A stretch of 64,000 nucleotides of DNA from Candidatus Egerieisoma sp. GTDB taxonomy: Bacteria > Bacteroidota > Bacteroidia > Bacteroidales > UBA932. Location: positions 17,924 to 81,923 of the forward strand of contig JAZNXX010000003.1 in assembly GCA_045594125.1 (NCBI GenBank), read 5' to 3'. Positions 37,711 through 43,461 of the stretch are shown piece after piece. The position numbers and the translations under genes were made by a program. How positions within the stretch are numbered: the stretch's first letter is position 1; each line of letters starts with the position of its first letter. Below the pieces are notes generated by a model. It worked only from the letters and a program-made list of their open reading frames with translations. It was not told the DNA's origin and did no database searches.

Positions 37711-37778
37711 CAGCGTAAATTTACCCTTTTGCAAGGCTTTTATGTTGAAATTCGCAAATATTGCATCAAAAATGCGAT

Positions 37779-39071
37779 ATGAAGAATTGTTCCAATTTTA
37801 TCTCTCTGGCACTGCTGTCAATACAGCTGATTGCCCTCTCATGCAGCAAGGATTTTGCCGATATAAAAACAGATTCCGGAAGCTCAGGAACTCTCCCGTT
37901 AAGGGATACTCTTCGGACGGTCGGTTATTTAGGCATTATAACTCTTAATGAGCTGGCGGTTAATGATACGGACCTTCTCTGGAGTGTGATTGAGGGTGAG
38001 GAGTGTGTGACCCTTACCGATTCTGTCATTATTGGAAGAAGAAAGGGCAGTGCTCTGCTGAAAGCCGCTTCTGGTAGCCTGGCAGGGCATATCAGAGTTG
38101 AGGTTACCGGTGAAAACTACATCCCTGTAGAGAATCTTCTGTTTGAAGTCAATGGAAGGGAGTCTCTCTCCGGGGATACACTGCTCCTTCAGAGCTGTGA
38201 TTGGGTTGGCCTTCTTCTGAAAGGGGTAAAGCCCGATAGTGCATCGCATCCGGCTATAAAGTCATTCAAGGCACTGTCTACACACTCTACCGGTGAACCT
38301 GATGAAGAGGGAAGCGCACTTTTTATGCGCAGTGTTATGGGGCTTGAAGAGGAGGAGATCAAGCTGCTCTCCCAAATACCATCACCGCTAAAATTGGGAT
38401 TCAGGGTCTATCCTTTTGTAAACCACTTTATCTTTATCGACAACAATCCGGATATCCACACCGATGACAGGCTCATTCCTGCTGACTCCATCCCAAGTAT
38501 GCTTCTTGAGTATGAACAGGAGATATATCCCGAGGGTTTAAGACTCTCGGAATGGGACCTATGGCAACTCGGAAAATATTTTACACGTGATGAGATATCT
38601 GTGAACAGAACCAGACACAGACTCTATTTTACAGATCTTGACAATTCTATAGAGATATGTAGGGAACAGAGGGGAAGCTATACGGGCATCTTTATAAAAT
38701 CAGGCGAAGAGCTGGAACTGGAGTGCAGTTTAAATGTGCCGGAGGAGTTTGAAAGTGGACTTTATTGGGCGGACGGTGTTTTTGAGGTTCACTCCAAATC
38801 ACTTGGAGAGGTCTATTCATTCGGAAACTATGCAAATAATGGCGGTAAACTTAAAATAAGCAGTTCAGGCCGTCTTTCACTTGACAGCTCTTTTTCAATT
38901 GATGGCAAGGATACCGCATATATCGGTACAGTATCTGCAATCCTGCTGCCTGATGACTGCAAAGAGTATTCTGCCCTCCATTTAAAGTATGAAGACCAGA
39001 ATTTCAATAAATGGATAGAGGAAATCTGCGGTATAAAAAACAGTGTGAAAATATATTGGATAAGAGATTAG
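37779..39071 (+). CDS. hypothetical lipoprotein with N-terminal Ig-like (Big_2-like) domain
   Basis: The start was moved to MKNCSNFISLALLSIQLIALSC, which gives a lipobox. The segment 'LLWSVIEGEECVTLTDSVIIGRRKGSALLKA' is Big_2-like. The rest is unassigned. Confidence 0.55.
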   Translation: MKNCSNFISLALLSIQLIALSCSKDFADIKTDSGSSGTLPLRDTLRTVGYLGIITLNELAVNDTDLLWSVIEGEECVTLTDSVIIGRRKGSALLKAASGSLAGHIRVEVTGENYIPVENLLFEVNGRESLSGDTLLLQSCDWVGLLLKGVKPDSASHPAIKSFKALSTHSTGEPDEEGSALFMRSVMGLEEEEIKLLSQIPSPLKLGFRVYPFVNHFIFIDNNPDIHTDDRLIPADSIPSMLLEYEQEIYPEGLRLSEWDLWQLGKYFTRDEISVNRTRHRLYFTDLDNSIEICREQRGSYTGIFIKSGEELELECSLNVPEEFESGLYWADGVFEVHSKSLGEVYSFGNYANNGGKLKISSSGRLSLDSSFSIDGKDTAYIGTVSAILLPDDCKEYSALHLKYEDQNFNKWIEEICGIKNSVKIYWIRD

Positions 39072-39146
39072 AATGATTTGCAGAAGGTTACGCTTCTTTT
39101 TCCTGTAATGGAAAGTTGACGGAAATAAAAAGCGTGATATAAAAAG

Positions 39147-39200
39147 GCCCGGTTGCGACTCTTTACATTTAAAGGGTTGCAATTCGGGCTTGGTTTTTTT
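39147..39200 (+). terminator. rho-independent terminator
   Basis: Hairpin gcccg-g-ttgc ... gcaa-tt-cgggc (5 + 4 bp with a small internal loop), followed by tggttttttt. Confidence 0.55.
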
Positions 39201-39300
39201 GAGATGGAGAAGGAGGTATTTGTCTGCGATATTAAATAGCCGATTCATAAAAGTGACCTGCAAATAATGTGACAATTTTAAACTTTATTACTATACAACT

Positions 39301-41160
39301 ATGATTCTGACACTGAATACTAAATTTGAGGGATATACTCCGGTGCAGATGCTTGGCAAGAGTACTTCATACAGGGAGGTGTATCTGGCGAAGGACTGCT
39401 GGGAACTGGATGTTGTTCTTACGGTATATGATATGAACAAATTGCCTGAGTGCTTTACAGATGGAAAGATTCCTGAGTTTGAAGTTATCCCACTATTGAA
39501 AAATGAAGTTTTTCCTGCATACTCTGATTGTGGCGACTATAACAATGGTGGTGTTTCATTACGGTGGATGGTAACAAAATATGTTGGTAGCACTACATTG
39601 ACTGAGTACATAAATTCAGATTGTCTCTACAATGAACGGGAGATGCTGCGCCAATTCTATAACTTGTTAGTTGCTGTTAAGGAACTTTCATTGCGTATGG
39701 GTGGAGGTTGTTGCAATAATATTTCTACGGATAATATTATTGTCTCGATGACTCCATCTGGAGAGATAAAGTGGTACCTGGTAGGGCTTAATTGCGTCTC
39801 TGGGACCTGTAATGGCCGTGCAACATTTGATACTAGTGTGCCATCTCTCATCTTTCGTGCCCCCGAAACATTGGTTGGACACTATAATGTCAGAACTGAT
39901 ATCTTCTCATTAGGCATTGTACTTGCGATTATTCTGCAAGGCAAACACCCTTGGGATGATTTTGTGAGAACAAATTCCGGGTTTCCGATAACTGCTATTG
40001 TAAAGTTGATGCGGGAAAATCCACCTGTATTATCCCATTCTGATGCACTAAATATTATCATAGCCAAAGCAATTGCAACTAAACCCTCTGAGAGATATAG
40101 GACTATTGAGGATATTGCTTTTGCTATAGCAAAATATCTTGGAGATGAGAAATTGAAGGGTTTTGAATGCTTTGCTCCTGAACACTCAAAACCTGTTTCA
40201 AGACTTTTCGAACATAAAACTGAAGAGGAGGTGCCAGTTGATAGTATGATACAACAAGCTCTTTCGCAACCAAAGTCCAATGTCCGGATTGAACGGGTTA
40301 AGGGCAATGGTTTCAAGGATGTGGCAGGTATGAAACAACTTAAAACTCTGCTGTCACGTAACTTTGTGGATATTGTCCAGAATCGCTGGCTGGCAGCACA
40401 ATTCCAGATTACTCCCCCGAACGGTACCTTATTGTGGGGGCCTCCGGGAACCGGCAAGACATTCATCTCACGCAAGCTTGCGGAGGAGAGCGGAATGTTA
40501 TTCAGTCTTATCAAGCCCAGCGATTTGGGTAATATCTATATCCACGGTTCGCAGAGTATGATTGCAGACCTCTTTACCCGCAGTGAGGAGCTGGCTGCCA
40601 AAAATAACTGTGGTGTTCTGCTGGTATTTGATGAGTTTGACAGCCTTGTGCCAAAGCGAGACGCCAATAAGGATAATAATCAGGCAAATGAGGTGGCAGA
40701 GTTCCTTACAAGGCTTAACGATTGTGCCGAAAAAAATGTCTATGTTGTTGCCACTACCAACCGTATTGACGCTATTGACCCAGCCATTATCCGCAAGGGA
40801 CGTATGGATGAGGTGATATATGTAGGACTTCCTGATGAAGAGGCCCGCAAGGAACTCTTGGAGCTGGAGCTGCTAAAACGTCCGCACGAAGATATAGACA
40901 CTGCCCGGATAGTAGAACTGACCAAAGGTTACTCATCAAGCGATATAAGTTTTATTGTAAAGGAGTGTGCGAGATGTTCATTTGATGAGAGTATCAAATC
41001 AAGGCATTTGGTAAAGATAAACCAGTCTCTGCTTGAGAAGACAATAGCCGGAACAAGACCTTCAGTGACTGAAGAGGAACTACGCCGCTTTGAACGGATT
41101 AAAGAATCGTTCACAAGAGAACATAAAAGGGAGCCGCTCAGAATAGGTTTTGTAAAATAG
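39301..41160 (+). CDS. protein-kinase-like (predicted catalytically inactive) domain fused to a classic-clade AAA+ ATPase
   Basis: 619 aa. The N-terminal half keeps kinase subdomains VIII/IX ('FRAPETL', 'TDIFSLGIVLAIIL.GKHPW'), but HRD is 'CNN' and DFG is 'LVG'. The C-terminal half has 'DVAGM', Walker A 'GPPGTGKT', Walker B 'LLVFDEFD', sensor-1 'VVATTN' and 'PAIIRKGRMD'. Confidence 0.8.
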   Translation: MILTLNTKFEGYTPVQMLGKSTSYREVYLAKDCWELDVVLTVYDMNKLPECFTDGKIPEFEVIPLLKNEVFPAYSDCGDYNNGGVSLRWMVTKYVGSTTLTEYINSDCLYNEREMLRQFYNLLVAVKELSLRMGGGCCNNISTDNIIVSMTPSGEIKWYLVGLNCVSGTCNGRATFDTSVPSLIFRAPETLVGHYNVRTDIFSLGIVLAIILQGKHPWDDFVRTNSGFPITAIVKLMRENPPVLSHSDALNIIIAKAIATKPSERYRTIEDIAFAIAKYLGDEKLKGFECFAPEHSKPVSRLFEHKTEEEVPVDSMIQQALSQPKSNVRIERVKGNGFKDVAGMKQLKTLLSRNFVDIVQNRWLAAQFQITPPNGTLLWGPPGTGKTFISRKLAEESGMLFSLIKPSDLGNIYIHGSQSMIADLFTRSEELAAKNNCGVLLVFDEFDSLVPKRDANKDNNQANEVAEFLTRLNDCAEKNVYVVATTNRIDAIDPAIIRKGRMDEVIYVGLPDEEARKELLELELLKRPHEDIDTARIVELTKGYSSSDISFIVKECARCSFDESIKSRHLVKINQSLLEKTIAGTRPSVTEEELRRFERIKESFTREHKREPLRIGFVK

Positions 41161-41220
41161 CTGATAGATATTCTGGGATATGGCACTCTATAATTATTGA
41201 ATAAATCACAAATTAATATT

Positions 41221-41712
41221 ATGAACCAGAAAGAGATTATAATTGACGAACTGAAGGCGATGGGTTTTGAGCCTGTCGAATTGGACGATATAGGCTATCG
41301 CTTCAAGTACGATGGGGTGAATTATCTATATGCGCCTAACGAAAATGATGAACAGTTTTTACGCATCGTTATCCCTAATCTGCAAGAGGTAACGGATGAG
41401 AATAGAGTAGCGGTGCTGGAGGCTATGCAAGAAACCAATTTGATGCTGAAGTATGCAAAGGTTTGCATTTTGTATGGGGATAGTGTATGGGCAATTTATG
41501 AGCATCGTTTTGATTCCACTGAGAATTTGACAGATTTGATGGAGCACATTATCAGTGTTCTTAATACAACTCAGCGGGTCTTCTACAAAATGATGAATGG
41601 TGAAGAGGTCGTTGGATCTCCAAAGAAGAGTGATGATTACTCTGACGATGCCATAGAGGCAGAATTGCAGAAGAGGCTTGATAGCATTGGGGATAGTGAG
41701 GAATATAACTAA
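41221..41712 (+). CDS. small acidic protein, YbjN/T3SS-chaperone-like fold suspected
   Basis: 163 aa from the ATG at 41221; the track starts at the TTG at 41197. The pattern 'IIDELKAMGFEPVELDD.GYRFKYDG..YLY....DEQFLRIVI' resembles YbjN-family topology. It is a paralogue of the next ORF. Confidence 0.6.
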   Translation: MNQKEIIIDELKAMGFEPVELDDIGYRFKYDGVNYLYAPNENDEQFLRIVIPNLQEVTDENRVAVLEAMQETNLMLKYAKVCILYGDSVWAIYEHRFDSTENLTDLMEHIISVLNTTQRVFYKMMNGEEVVGSPKKSDDYSDDAIEAELQKRLDSIGDSEEYN

Positions 41713-41723
41713 AAAATAGTGAT

Positions 41724-42107
41724 ATGAATACATATGAACTGGCAAAAAAATTTATAGCTGGACAGCGATACCGGGTATGTTACGAAGAGTGTTCGGAAGG
41801 TTGCATTGTTTTCCGTTACCAGATGAATACAATGCATATCTTCGTAAACACTGAAGATGAACACTTCTTATTTATGACATTGCTGAATTTTACAGATGTA
41901 ACTAAGGAGAATTTAGAACAGGTTGAGGAAAACTGCCATCAGTTAAACAAAGAGACAAAACTCGTAAAATTTTATGTTATGAACGATATGATTTTGGCAA
42001 CAGTGGAGGCATATTACCTCGCCGAAGAGGATTTCAATTTTCAGATGATGAATGCTCTAAAGCATCTTGTAGAGGCAAAAGTAATGTATAAAAAGTTGTA
42101 CGAATAG
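41724..42107 (+). CDS. small protein, paralogue of 41221-41712 (YbjN-like suspected)
   Basis: 127 aa, 11 nt downstream of the previous gene. 'FRYQMNTMHIFVNTEDEHFLFMTLLNFTDVTKENLEQVEE' aligns with 'YRFKYDGVNYLYAPNENDEQFLRIVIPNLQEVTDENRVAVLE'. Confidence 0.6.
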   Translation: MNTYELAKKFIAGQRYRVCYEECSEGCIVFRYQMNTMHIFVNTEDEHFLFMTLLNFTDVTKENLEQVEENCHQLNKETKLVKFYVMNDMILATVEAYYLAEEDFNFQMMNALKHLVEAKVMYKKLYE

Positions 42108-42181
42108 TTAATAGAGCTATTATAAATAGGACAAACTTATACTGGATATCCGATAAATATATTCTTTAAATGTAACACAAT

Positions 42182-42358
42182 ATGATTATGAAAAAGGTGA
42201 AAGAAGTACGAGGACTAAAATGTCCAAACCACGATTATGTAAGGGATAACTACCATTTCTTGTATGAGGAGGCATATTTGGGCGCAAAACCTCTGCCGAG
42301 TACAAGATGTATAAAGTGTGGCTATACAATGTCATTGCACAAGGCTCAGAAGTATTAA
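42182..42358 (+). CDS. 58-aa zinc-ribbon-like miniprotein (not in the ORF track)
   Basis: My own translation is MIMKKVKEVRGLKCPNHDYVRDNYHFLYEEAYLGAKPLPSTRCIKCGYTMSLHKAQKY*. It has a CPxH...CxxC arrangement and is co-directional within the cassette. Confidence 0.4.
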   Translation: MIMKKVKEVRGLKCPNHDYVRDNYHFLYEEAYLGAKPLPSTRCIKCGYTMSLHKAQKY

Positions 42359-42386
42359 TCAAATTATAAAACTAAACTATAACAAT

Positions 42387-43061
42387 ATGACAAAGATCTG
42401 TTTCCCAAATTATAATAAAGGTGAGTTTGCATCGTTGGCCGACGCATTGAAATTTATGCGCCGTAATGACAACTTCGTTTCAAGATATGCATTGTGCAAT
42501 ATTGTGCAATACAATATCTGCTACCGGAATCACCTGCGTCAATACGGTATTGACAGCTTGATTTTCAGGCTTCTTGATGAGGCGCCTAAGTTGAAGCAAG
42601 AGAGGGTGCTGCTTTATTATTTGCGTAAATGGGCAAAAGATGAAAAACTTGCTGATTATGATATCCAGTGTTATAATATAAAAGATAAAGTAACCATTCT
42701 AGGGCATACATTTAATGGCCTTGAAGATATTAGTGAACACTTTGAACTATATACCAGGGATGGTTATGGCGCTATGCACCATCTGTTTTCGGTGGAAGAC
42801 AGAGAGTACGACGATATACATATAGGCCATTTTTTTGAAAACTATCCAATTTTTGACAGCTCGGATCTAAGTGATGACCGCACCTATCAGAACTACATCT
42901 TTCGTTCCAATCCTATTACTGAAAGTGATATGCAGGAGGCCTTCAATGTATTCCACGGCTTTAATTTCTGCAGAGTGCACGAAAATATTCCGGTTGAGAC
43001 TCTGCCCATTCTCTACTATAACGGGAATGGTAAGTATATGCTGCTGGCAACAAAAAGATGA
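42387..43061 (+). CDS. hypothetical protein (orphan, 224 aa)
   Basis: The ATG at 42387 is preferred over the GTG at 42318, which would overlap the miniprotein ORF. No recognisable motif. Confidence 0.55.
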   Translation: MTKICFPNYNKGEFASLADALKFMRRNDNFVSRYALCNIVQYNICYRNHLRQYGIDSLIFRLLDEAPKLKQERVLLYYLRKWAKDEKLADYDIQCYNIKDKVTILGHTFNGLEDISEHFELYTRDGYGAMHHLFSVEDREYDDIHIGHFFENYPIFDSSDLSDDRTYQNYIFRSNPITESDMQEAFNVFHGFNFCRVHENIPVETLPILYYNGNGKYMLLATKR

Positions 43062-43123
43062 CACTTTGGCAAAGAGGTTTAAGGATACAAAAACAAATTG
43101 ACATTTAAACTGATTATTCTATT

Positions 43124-43297
43124 ATGGAAACAAAAACTGGCTCAAATGTAAAACATACAGCTGTCAAAGTGACTCTTATTGCTGTTATTTCACTTATGCT
43201 GCTTATCCCTTTGGCAATGATAGAGGATGTTATTAATGATCGTGAACAGACAAAGGATTCCGTTACAGAGGAGGTGGCAGACTCCTATGCGTTGTGA
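43124..43297 (+). pseudogene. creD: creD (cell envelope integrity protein) 5' fragment, 57 codons only
   Basis: 'VKVTLIAVISLMLLIPLAMIEDVINDREQTKDSVTEEV' matches the N-terminal TM helix and following motif of CreD ('LLLLIPIMLIRQVIVERADYRSDVEDAI' in E. coli). Full-length CreD is about 450 aa. Confidence 0.6.
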
Positions 43298-43382
43298 TGT
43301 ATCTTACTGCAGGAATCAATAATAGACCGACAGCCAAGAGTGAATAACGTTGGTGCTGTTTGACTGAATCTGTCGGGCAAAG

Positions 43383-43429
43383 GAGAGGCCGGATCAAAAT
43401 TGCTTTTGACCCGGCCTCTCATCTTTTTT
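43383..43429 (+). terminator. rho-independent terminator
   Basis: Perfect 10-bp GC-rich stem gagaggccgg/ccggcctctc, followed by atctttttt. Confidence 0.65.
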
Positions 43430-43461
43430 AAATATCCATCAGTACAGGAAGTGACAAGGGC

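Follow-up and report, generated by a model that had tools for sequence, protein, structure and literature searches.

Here we report on two adjacent genes, P1 and P2, which occupy positions 41221-42107 of a stretch of 64,000 nucleotides (nt) from Candidatus Egerieisoma sp., a member of the Bacteroidales (contig JAZNXX010000003.1); this whole stretch is called the window below. The two genes encode diverged paralogues with the fold of YbjN and of the class I chaperones of type III secretion systems (T3SS), only the first of which carries an acidic tail, and they stand directly behind a gene in which a kinase-like domain is fused to an AAA+ ATPase. The three genes keep this order in many related loci and form an accessory cassette. 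We propose, as an explanation whose chances we judge to be about even, that P1 and P2 form a heterodimer acting as the client-holding adaptor of a pseudokinase-AAA+ unfoldase within an accessory module of the conflict type. The nearly constant place of the pair behind this ATPase gene in gut Bacteroidales points to a chaperone-plus-unfoldase module that is so far undescribed; no published description of the P1-P2-ATPase trio was found. The two open reading frames (ORFs), of 163 and 127 amino acids (aa), lie on the plus strand 11 nt apart, exactly as listed in a first-pass annotation that had been made from the sequence without database searches.

Fold and paralogy of P1 and P2

The Pfam family YbjN (PF10722, gathering cut-off 22) matched P2 above its cut-off (23.3 bits, E 7.9e-5) and P1 just under it (18.5 bits, E 0.0025). 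Its matches at E <= 0.01 covered 15 of the 74 orthologues and, in the wider family, 50 of 125 representatives. With TY-Chap1 (PF22551, gathering cut-off 27 bits) P2 scored 15.5 bits, short of the cut-off, and P1 gave no match; a minority of the orthologues reach E 1e-6 with this family, 37 of the 125 wider-family representatives match it, and stand-alone relatives from Bacteroidota pass its cut-off (35-36 bits). Monomer models of both proteins were made with AlphaFold2 from the family alignments. The P2 model reached a predicted local distance difference test score (pLDDT) of 93 and a predicted template modelling score of 0.85, and the P1 model a pLDDT of about 90 over residues 1-130, with the topology H-E-E-E-E-H-E-E-H (H, helix; E, strand). 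The layout consists of a helix, three to four strands including the DE.F strand, a helix starting at a conserved N, two strands and a long C-terminal helix, which fits the order of elements read by eye in the first-pass annotation, where the C-terminal helix was not listed.

Foldseek comparison with the PDB paired both P1 and P2, at a probability of 1.00, with YbjN (6vu7), AmyR (5fr7/5frk), 3cxj, PA14_16140 and DR1245, and at the same probability with the class I T3SS chaperones SycH, SycN-YscB (1xkp), ExsC, CesT, SicP and SycE; the ExsC-ExsE and CsrA-CesT structures were also among the matches. Query TM-scores (TMq) to the YbjN and AmyR structures were 0.71-0.75 for P2; for P1, compared at full length with its tail, they were 0.57-0.60. 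Profiles of P1, of P2 and of the wide family found nothing significant among PDB sequences, and the fold assignment therefore rests on Pfam and on structure comparison. On these confident models the suspected YbjN / class I secretion-chaperone fold, that of the 'TY-chaperone' superfamily, is confirmed for both predicted structures. A HORMA fold, which had initially been left open as an alternative, found no support: it was absent from the top 50 Foldseek matches, and no Pfam HORMA family matched either protein even at E <= 1.

P1 and P2 are true paralogues by three independent comparisons. A direct BLASTP alignment of 124 columns has E 1e-4 and 23% identical residues. The hidden Markov model (HMM) of the P1 family matches every P2 orthologue and vice versa, with E-values from 1e-5 to 1e-11, and a comparison of the family alignments by hhalign gave a probability of 97.5% and E 5.3e-12, also over 124 columns. 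BLASTP pairs the same residues that had been matched by eye in the first reading of the sequence, and the HMM and hhalign results agree with this alignment. Common to both proteins are the DE.F strand, P52, the VT.EN helix cap, K77/K80 and an L..H in the last helix; invariant in P2 only are Q33, N35, C71, N75, E95 and DF.FQ. P1, P2 and the ATPase have diverged at comparable rates, with identities of 67%, 69% and 76%, respectively, to their counterparts in locus L015 and of 37%, 44% and 34% to those in locus L031.

Linkage to the ATPase gene, P1 tail and distribution

Related loci were collected by two routes. In the first, P1 and P2 served as queries in a protein database with contig look-ups, in species-representative genomes and in metagenome contigs, which gave 38 loci; in the second, homologues of the kinase-like domain, from 76% down to 34% identity, were examined on their contigs. 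Together the routes gave 45 loci in 29 clusters at 90% P1 identity, many of the loci being near-duplicates from related samples, and their ORFs were assigned simply by taking the longest reading frame. In all 37 first-route loci where downstream DNA is present P2 comes after P1, as it does in six further loci derived from the kinase-AAA+ searches; on the second route, orthologues of P1 and P2 stood, in this order, behind every homologue. In each of the 15 loci examined in detail, the gene just before the pair encodes a kinase-AAA+ orthologue (34-76% identity). Among the 38 first-route loci the kinase-AAA+ gene is immediately upstream in 32, either complete, cut by the contig end or, at L104/L105, truncated, and at L029, L100 and L118 the upstream DNA is too short for the ATPase to be judged. 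Nearly every locus that is long enough has the linkage, and the position directly after the AAA+ gene, to which the first-pass annotation had drawn attention, is thus a regular feature of the homologues.

The ATPase is the only constant partner of P1-P2, because all other neighbours vary. The linkage singles out the ATPase but gives no distinction between an adaptor and a regulator. Gene order and linkage are kept down to about 35% identity in many lineages of gut Bacteroidales, the host bins coming from animal guts and belonging to Alistipes, Prevotella, Bacteroidaceae, Muribaculaceae and Paludibacteraceae.

An acidic, disordered tail of 20-40 residues is present in 27 of the 29 P1 clusters and was never seen in P2 orthologues. 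In the AlphaFold2 model of P1 the tail has a pLDDT of 36-59, with a helix predicted at residues 142-156. About two-thirds of the P1 clusters share the helix motif [ST][DE][DE]x[LIV]Exx[LI]xK.L, the window version of which is YSDDAIEAELQKRLD; one P1 clade has a purely acidic tail, and L036 and L104 have next to no tail. Whether P1 orthologues without a tail go together with a deletion in the pseudokinase C-lobe was considered, and this was discarded as evidence, both being found in one lineage only (L036).

The AAA+ module of the fusion matches the CDC48 subfamily of NCBIfam (E 3e-41) and falls into the classical clade (Cdc48/FtsH/PAN-like), and its PADLOC matches are limited to weak ones with TRIP13 and IetA, which extend over the generic AAA+ module only. 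In an alignment of 12 orthologues the APE region, the Walker A/B motifs and the YIHG pore loop are kept, and the catalytic positions of the kinase are replaced (beta3 Lys by T/I/L, HRD Asp by Asn, DFG Asp mostly by Gly); the kinase residues are lost in all orthologues that have the tandem P1-P2. By these motifs the AAA+ motor is intact and the kinase dead. In the shorter forms of the fusion (594-599 aa) it is the linker between the domains that differs and not the kinase lobe.

Homologous fusions with an active type of kinase occur elsewhere. A distant module in the same genus (L004, G010:C66:41290-46035) encodes a 622-aa fusion with the kinase motifs K/HND/DLG intact, in the order M48 peptidase-TerB protein, single tail-less YbjN-like gene (126 aa), kinase-AAA+ and ClpP (Pfam E 1e-52). 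In nine other Bacteroidales genomes the active-type fusion stands mostly with an Hsp70-like gene and a 165-179-aa protein of no known family, and a YbjN-like neighbour was found among them only at L084. In another branch of the fusion family, at L083 and L085-L089 (seven Bacteroidales genomes), an 830-850-aa Hsp70-like and a 300-aa EssA-like protein precede the fusion, a 163-179-aa protein of no known family comes after it, and there is no YbjN-like gene. The fusions of L004 and L084 are homologous to that of the trio (34% identity), and their YbjN-like neighbour is closer to P1 than to P2; they differ from the trio in their intact kinase motifs and in having a single tail-less chaperone-like gene, which lies upstream. 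Since its neighbours are ClpP, Hsp70-like or YbjN-like genes, the fusion family keeps protein-handling partners, and the tandem P1-P2 is the signature of its dead-kinase branch.

The cassette is accessory. In 40 genus genomes nothing matched the DNA of positions 37760-43460, which covers a lipoprotein gene and the cassette, whereas both flanks are kept there, and the kinase-AAA+ fusion was found in one of 24 other genus genomes, there in a different version with 36% identity. Across the phylum, the family profile matched in only 5 of 400 genomes. Searched against 1.84 billion representative proteins, the profile recovered 1588 small relatives with a single domain, and for 547 of these E was below 1e-10. 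The best 150 of the 1588 representatives showed single small domains, with no fusion of P1 to P2 or of either to another domain apart from UBA: two of the 125 wider-family representatives (alignment A5) have a UBA or UBA-like domain beside the TY-chaperone domain. In a genome of another Bacteroidota class (G107, L050 8501-11198), a stand-alone TY-Chap1 gene (35 bits) is divergently adjacent to dnaK.

The genes around the trio were compared in 16 loci. Upstream genes include c3 (about 450 aa; 9 loci) and c4 (about 415 aa; 8 loci), a DUF1232 protein is present in 11, a 224-aa protein (c5) in 6 and a 58-aa ORF (c12) in 4. Other neighbours that vary are vWA, WG-repeat, PTP, PP2C, SIR2, CHAT-TPR protease and CbbX-type AAA+ genes, and an ADP-ribosylglycohydrolase (ARG) with a Nudix-NrtR regulator. 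Thus the relatives L015 and L017 have an ARG-PTP near the trio, and L032 and L038 have a Nudix transcription factor, ARG, PP2C and vWA beside it. The window holds a minimal version of the cassette, made of the trio, the 58-aa ORF and the 224-aa protein.

Proposed role and competing explanations

P1 and P2 most likely pair as a heterodimer in the style of SycN-YscB, because they co-occur one to one in fixed order, each has invariant residues of its own, and a fused two-copy form, TY-Chap2, exists in the superfamily. The exclusive linkage of this putative heterodimer to the ATPase argues for a direct functional partnership, in which we infer that the heterodimer binds peptides specifically on behalf of the pseudokinase-AAA+ protein, the product of the gene before it. 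Holding a client by an extended stretch, it would offer this client to the Cdc48-like ring, which would use ATP to unfold the client or to disassemble a complex. The acidic tail of P1 may dock on the ATPase or be engaged by it, either in the substrate groove of the pseudokinase or in the pore. In this explanation the trio is the fixed core of an accessory 'conflict-type' island that has spread horizontally among gut Bacteroidales. Its clients may be modified proteins (phosphorylated or ADP-ribosylated) or foreign ones, as suggested by the variable PTP, PP2C, ARG, Nudix, vWA, SIR2 and CHAT genes. The data show the fold, the paralogy, the constant gene order with its tie to the ATPase, the confinement of the tail to P1 and the accessory distribution; from these we derive the heterodimer, its role as adaptor, the docking of the tail and the kind of clients.

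The proposed division of labour has a model in type III secretion. Class I T3SS chaperones are dimers that keep a client segment extended and partly unfolded and deliver the effector to an ATPase, which removes the chaperone and unfolds the effector. In SycN-YscB two paralogues form the heterodimer, the TY-fold proteins ExsC and CesT are sequestering regulators, and class I chaperones are typically encoded next to their client. The partner of these chaperones is the F1-like SctN ATPase, whereas in that of P1 and P2 a pseudokinase is joined to a classical AAA+ ring; unlike them, P1 and P2 are cytoplasmic and belong to an accessory island in a genome without an export gate.

Within the superfamily, YbjN of E. 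coli, AmyR of Erwinia and DR1245 of Deinococcus (4h5b) resemble P1 and P2 in fold and size (TM up to 0.75) but share only 7-14% sequence identity with them. Each of them is encoded by one isolated gene, and their phenotypes concern stress or regulation, whereas P1 and P2 form an obligate tandem of diverged paralogues, one of them acidic-tailed, that is linked to an AAA+ gene. YbjN is the most widespread and least understood branch of the clan (2026 review, PMC13466201), and full-text literature searches brought up no paper that connects YbjN-like proteins with an AAA+ ATPase or with a fusion of kinase and AAA+ domains. TY-Chap proteins, of which TY-Chap2 is the fused two-copy form, have been predicted to be peptide-binding chaperones of ARG-centred systems, themselves predicted to counter viral ADP-ribosylation (Iyer, Burroughs, Anantharaman and Aravind 2022, PMC9503650); the text of that paper mentions neither an AAA+ ATPase nor a protein kinase or pseudokinase for these systems. 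Relatives of the trio resemble the ARG-centred systems in sharing the superfamily and in having Nudix-NrtR transcription factor, ARG, PP2C/PTP and vWA neighbours; the enzymes recurring in their islands take phosphate or ADP-ribose off proteins. The neighbourhood by which such systems are recognised (ARG, usually together with a Nudix or WYL-HTH regulator and a phosphatase) is present in relatives and absent from the window cassette. The trio further resembles HORMA-TRIP13 of the cyclic-oligonucleotide-based antiphage signalling systems (CBASS) and IetA-IetS in placing a small partner beside a classical AAA+ remodeller in an accessory locus of the defence type; it differs from them in that P1 and P2 are not HORMA proteins and that there is no cyclase and no IetS protease.

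Several observations weigh against the adaptor reading or against a role in defence. At L104/L105 (5575-6779) P1-P2 is intact and the ATPase is reduced to its last 117 or so codons, a remnant that adjoins a radical-SAM/SPASM-like gene of 791 aa; at L023 (204-1348) an intact pair follows an ATPase remnant of about 10 residues, and at L112 there is no ATPase at all. The copies at L104/L105 and L023 look like decaying modules, and the pair may thus persist, at least transiently, without the ATPase. From the other side, the wider kinase-AAA+ family is mostly without a YbjN-like neighbour, which is present in 2 of the 10 sampled. In the five genomes with profile matches across the phylum, the YbjN/TY-Chap1 genes stand alone; their neighbours are an amidohydrolase, a radical-SAM enzyme or dnaK, and in no case an AAA+ gene. 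The window cassette has no ARG, Nudix, phosphatase or vWA genes, and a role in reversing protein modification is thus only suggested by the relatives. The genome does encode an ARG-PTP-ARG protein of 847 aa (contig C58:31087-33630; L121 9087-11630, minus strand), which is 89% identical to a counterpart about 3 kb downstream of the trio in L015 and L017; this gene is on another contig, unlinked to the trio, and has no other island genes near it. Finally, PADLOC and PHROGs had no match for P1, P2, the 58-aa ORF or the 224-aa protein, and a scan of viral contigs returned no relative, so that none of these searches directly supports a role in defence.

The main rival, which we regard as doubtful though serious, makes the P1-P2 dimer a substrate or regulator of the ATPase, in parallel to HORMA-TRIP13 or to the partner switching of ExsC. 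The dimer would act as a switch that sequesters a regulator or effector until the pseudokinase-gated ring pulls on the P1 tail and dismantles the complex. The linkage evidence is identical for this model and for the adaptor model, a disordered acidic tail confined to P1 is the type of handle that an unfoldase needs, and the weak PADLOC matches of the AAA+ part are to TRIP13 and IetA. Sequestering regulators with the TY fold are also known in ExsC and CesT, both of which appeared in complexes among the Foldseek matches. The fold of P1 and P2 is, however, not HORMA-like, and no third partner is conserved across the loci. Computationally, the switch and the adaptor are indistinguishable.

It is unlikely, in our estimation, that P1-P2 instead serves a toxic downstream protein, for instance the 224-aa c5, as its own chaperone or antidote, with the ATPase only loosely connected. 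The habit of class I chaperone genes to adjoin that of their client would favour such an arrangement, as would the invariant His, Cys and Asp residues of the 224-aa protein two genes downstream; yet the downstream gene varies (c12/c5, c6, DUF1232, SIR2 and others), and c5 accompanies the pair in a minority of the loci compared, whereas the ATPase is constant. A last explanation is already disfavoured, and we consider it highly improbable: P1 and P2 would be generic stress proteins of the YbjN type, for which the proximity of the ATPase is meaningless, or classical type III secretion chaperones. Pfam does place them with YbjN, and YbjN/TY-Chap1 genes that stand alone in housekeeping surroundings do occur in other Bacteroidota, in one case beside dnaK. 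Against a generic function stand the persistence of order and linkage to such low identity in so many gut lineages and the accessory nature of the cassette. A function in type III secretion was rejected on the grounds that no FHIPEP protein (SctV/FlhA) was detected in the genome, which is 90.5% complete and in which the controls were positive; because the genome is without a type III or flagellar export gate, P1 and P2 are not secretion chaperones.

The adaptor reading can be extended, tentatively, to the YbjN family in general, whose members might be client-presenting adaptors or tail-bearing handles of AAA+ unfoldases, the trio being a pseudokinase-gated machine that dismantles modified or foreign proteins in conflicts with phages or others. 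If this were true, a very widespread and uncharacterised bacterial family would gain a biochemical role, and a new type of protein-level immune module would be added. The trio itself offers a concrete and easily tested hypothesis, in which a heterodimer serves an AAA+ motor as adaptor or handle, and with it a role for the little-understood YbjN family that can be put to the test. To the predicted conflict systems that reverse ADP-ribose and phosphate modifications it adds an ATP-driven component headed by a pseudokinase. If the module is defensive, it would represent an immune mechanism that targets proteins, in a phylum whose means of defence have been little studied.

Layout of the cassette and its ends

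The features of the cassette are listed in Table 1. The stop codon of the AAA+ gene (41160) is separated from the start of P1 by 60 nt. P1 was started at 41221 rather than at the upstream TTG at 41197 because its orthologues uniformly open with MNQKE or MKQKE. A terminator scan of 39301-43061 gave only weak, chance-level matches between the intact genes.

Table 1. Coordinates of P1, P2, the partner gene and associated features in the window
Feature	Position	Strand	Description
Pseudokinase-AAA+ fusion (partner gene)	39301..41160	+	619 aa; Pfam Pkinase E 1e-10, AAA E 1e-27, AAA_lid_3
P1	41221..41712	+	163 aa, ATG to TAA; YbjN/TY-chaperone-fold domain at residues 1-126
P1 C-terminal extension	41611..41709	+	Acidic low-confidence linker, then a short amphipathic helix (YSDDAIEAELQKRLD)
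P2	41724..42107	+	127 aa, ATG to TAG; YbjN/TY-chaperone-fold paralogue without tail
58-aa ORF (cluster c12)	42182..42358	+	Often next after P2
224-aa protein (c5)	42387..43061	+	Family without library match; variable accessory island member
GC-rich hairpin and T-run	43383..43429		Cassette end, between convergent genes; read from sequence

The two small genes behind P2 belong to the variable part of the island. In L025, L027 and L034 the place after P2 is likewise taken by homologues of the 58-aa ORF, which have 55-86 aa; no family match was found for the ORF. The 224-aa protein has homologues with 47-71% identity in L017, L025 (two copies), L032 and L038, standing right after P2 in the last two, and had no match in Pfam, PADLOC or PHROGs. 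Its family has many invariant His, Cys, Asp and Tyr residues and the motifs ILGHTF, ADYDI, HG.NFC..HE and LP.LYY, from which the protein could be an enzyme or an effector.

Upstream of the trio, the window has a 436-aa lipoprotein gene (37761-39071). It was considered as a part of the module and rejected, as it is not homologous to c3 or c4, which precede the trio elsewhere. The c4 protein, which does not occur in the window, shows in L015 (4300-5571) and in its orthologues a faint similarity to sigma-70 region 2 or to extracytoplasmic function (ECF) sigma factors (Pfam E 0.08; E 0.13-0.5 in the PDB profile comparison) and may be a divergent sigma-like regulator.

In two genus genomes (G830 and G821) the block of esterase and HD-membrane genes lies on the opposite side of the reductase/OYE/SDR cluster, and since this block has switched sides, the cassette is placed at the junction of an inversion or rearrangement. 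Its downstream end is marked by the hairpin, which separates the cassette from the convergent esterase gene and was not listed by the simple terminator scan. Copies of this hairpin (GAGAGGCCGG...CCGGCCTCTC with a T-run) that are 85-97% identical occur on many contigs of many genus genomes, and it is also present on two further contigs of the same genome, which suggests that it is a member of a dispersed family of terminator-like repeats.

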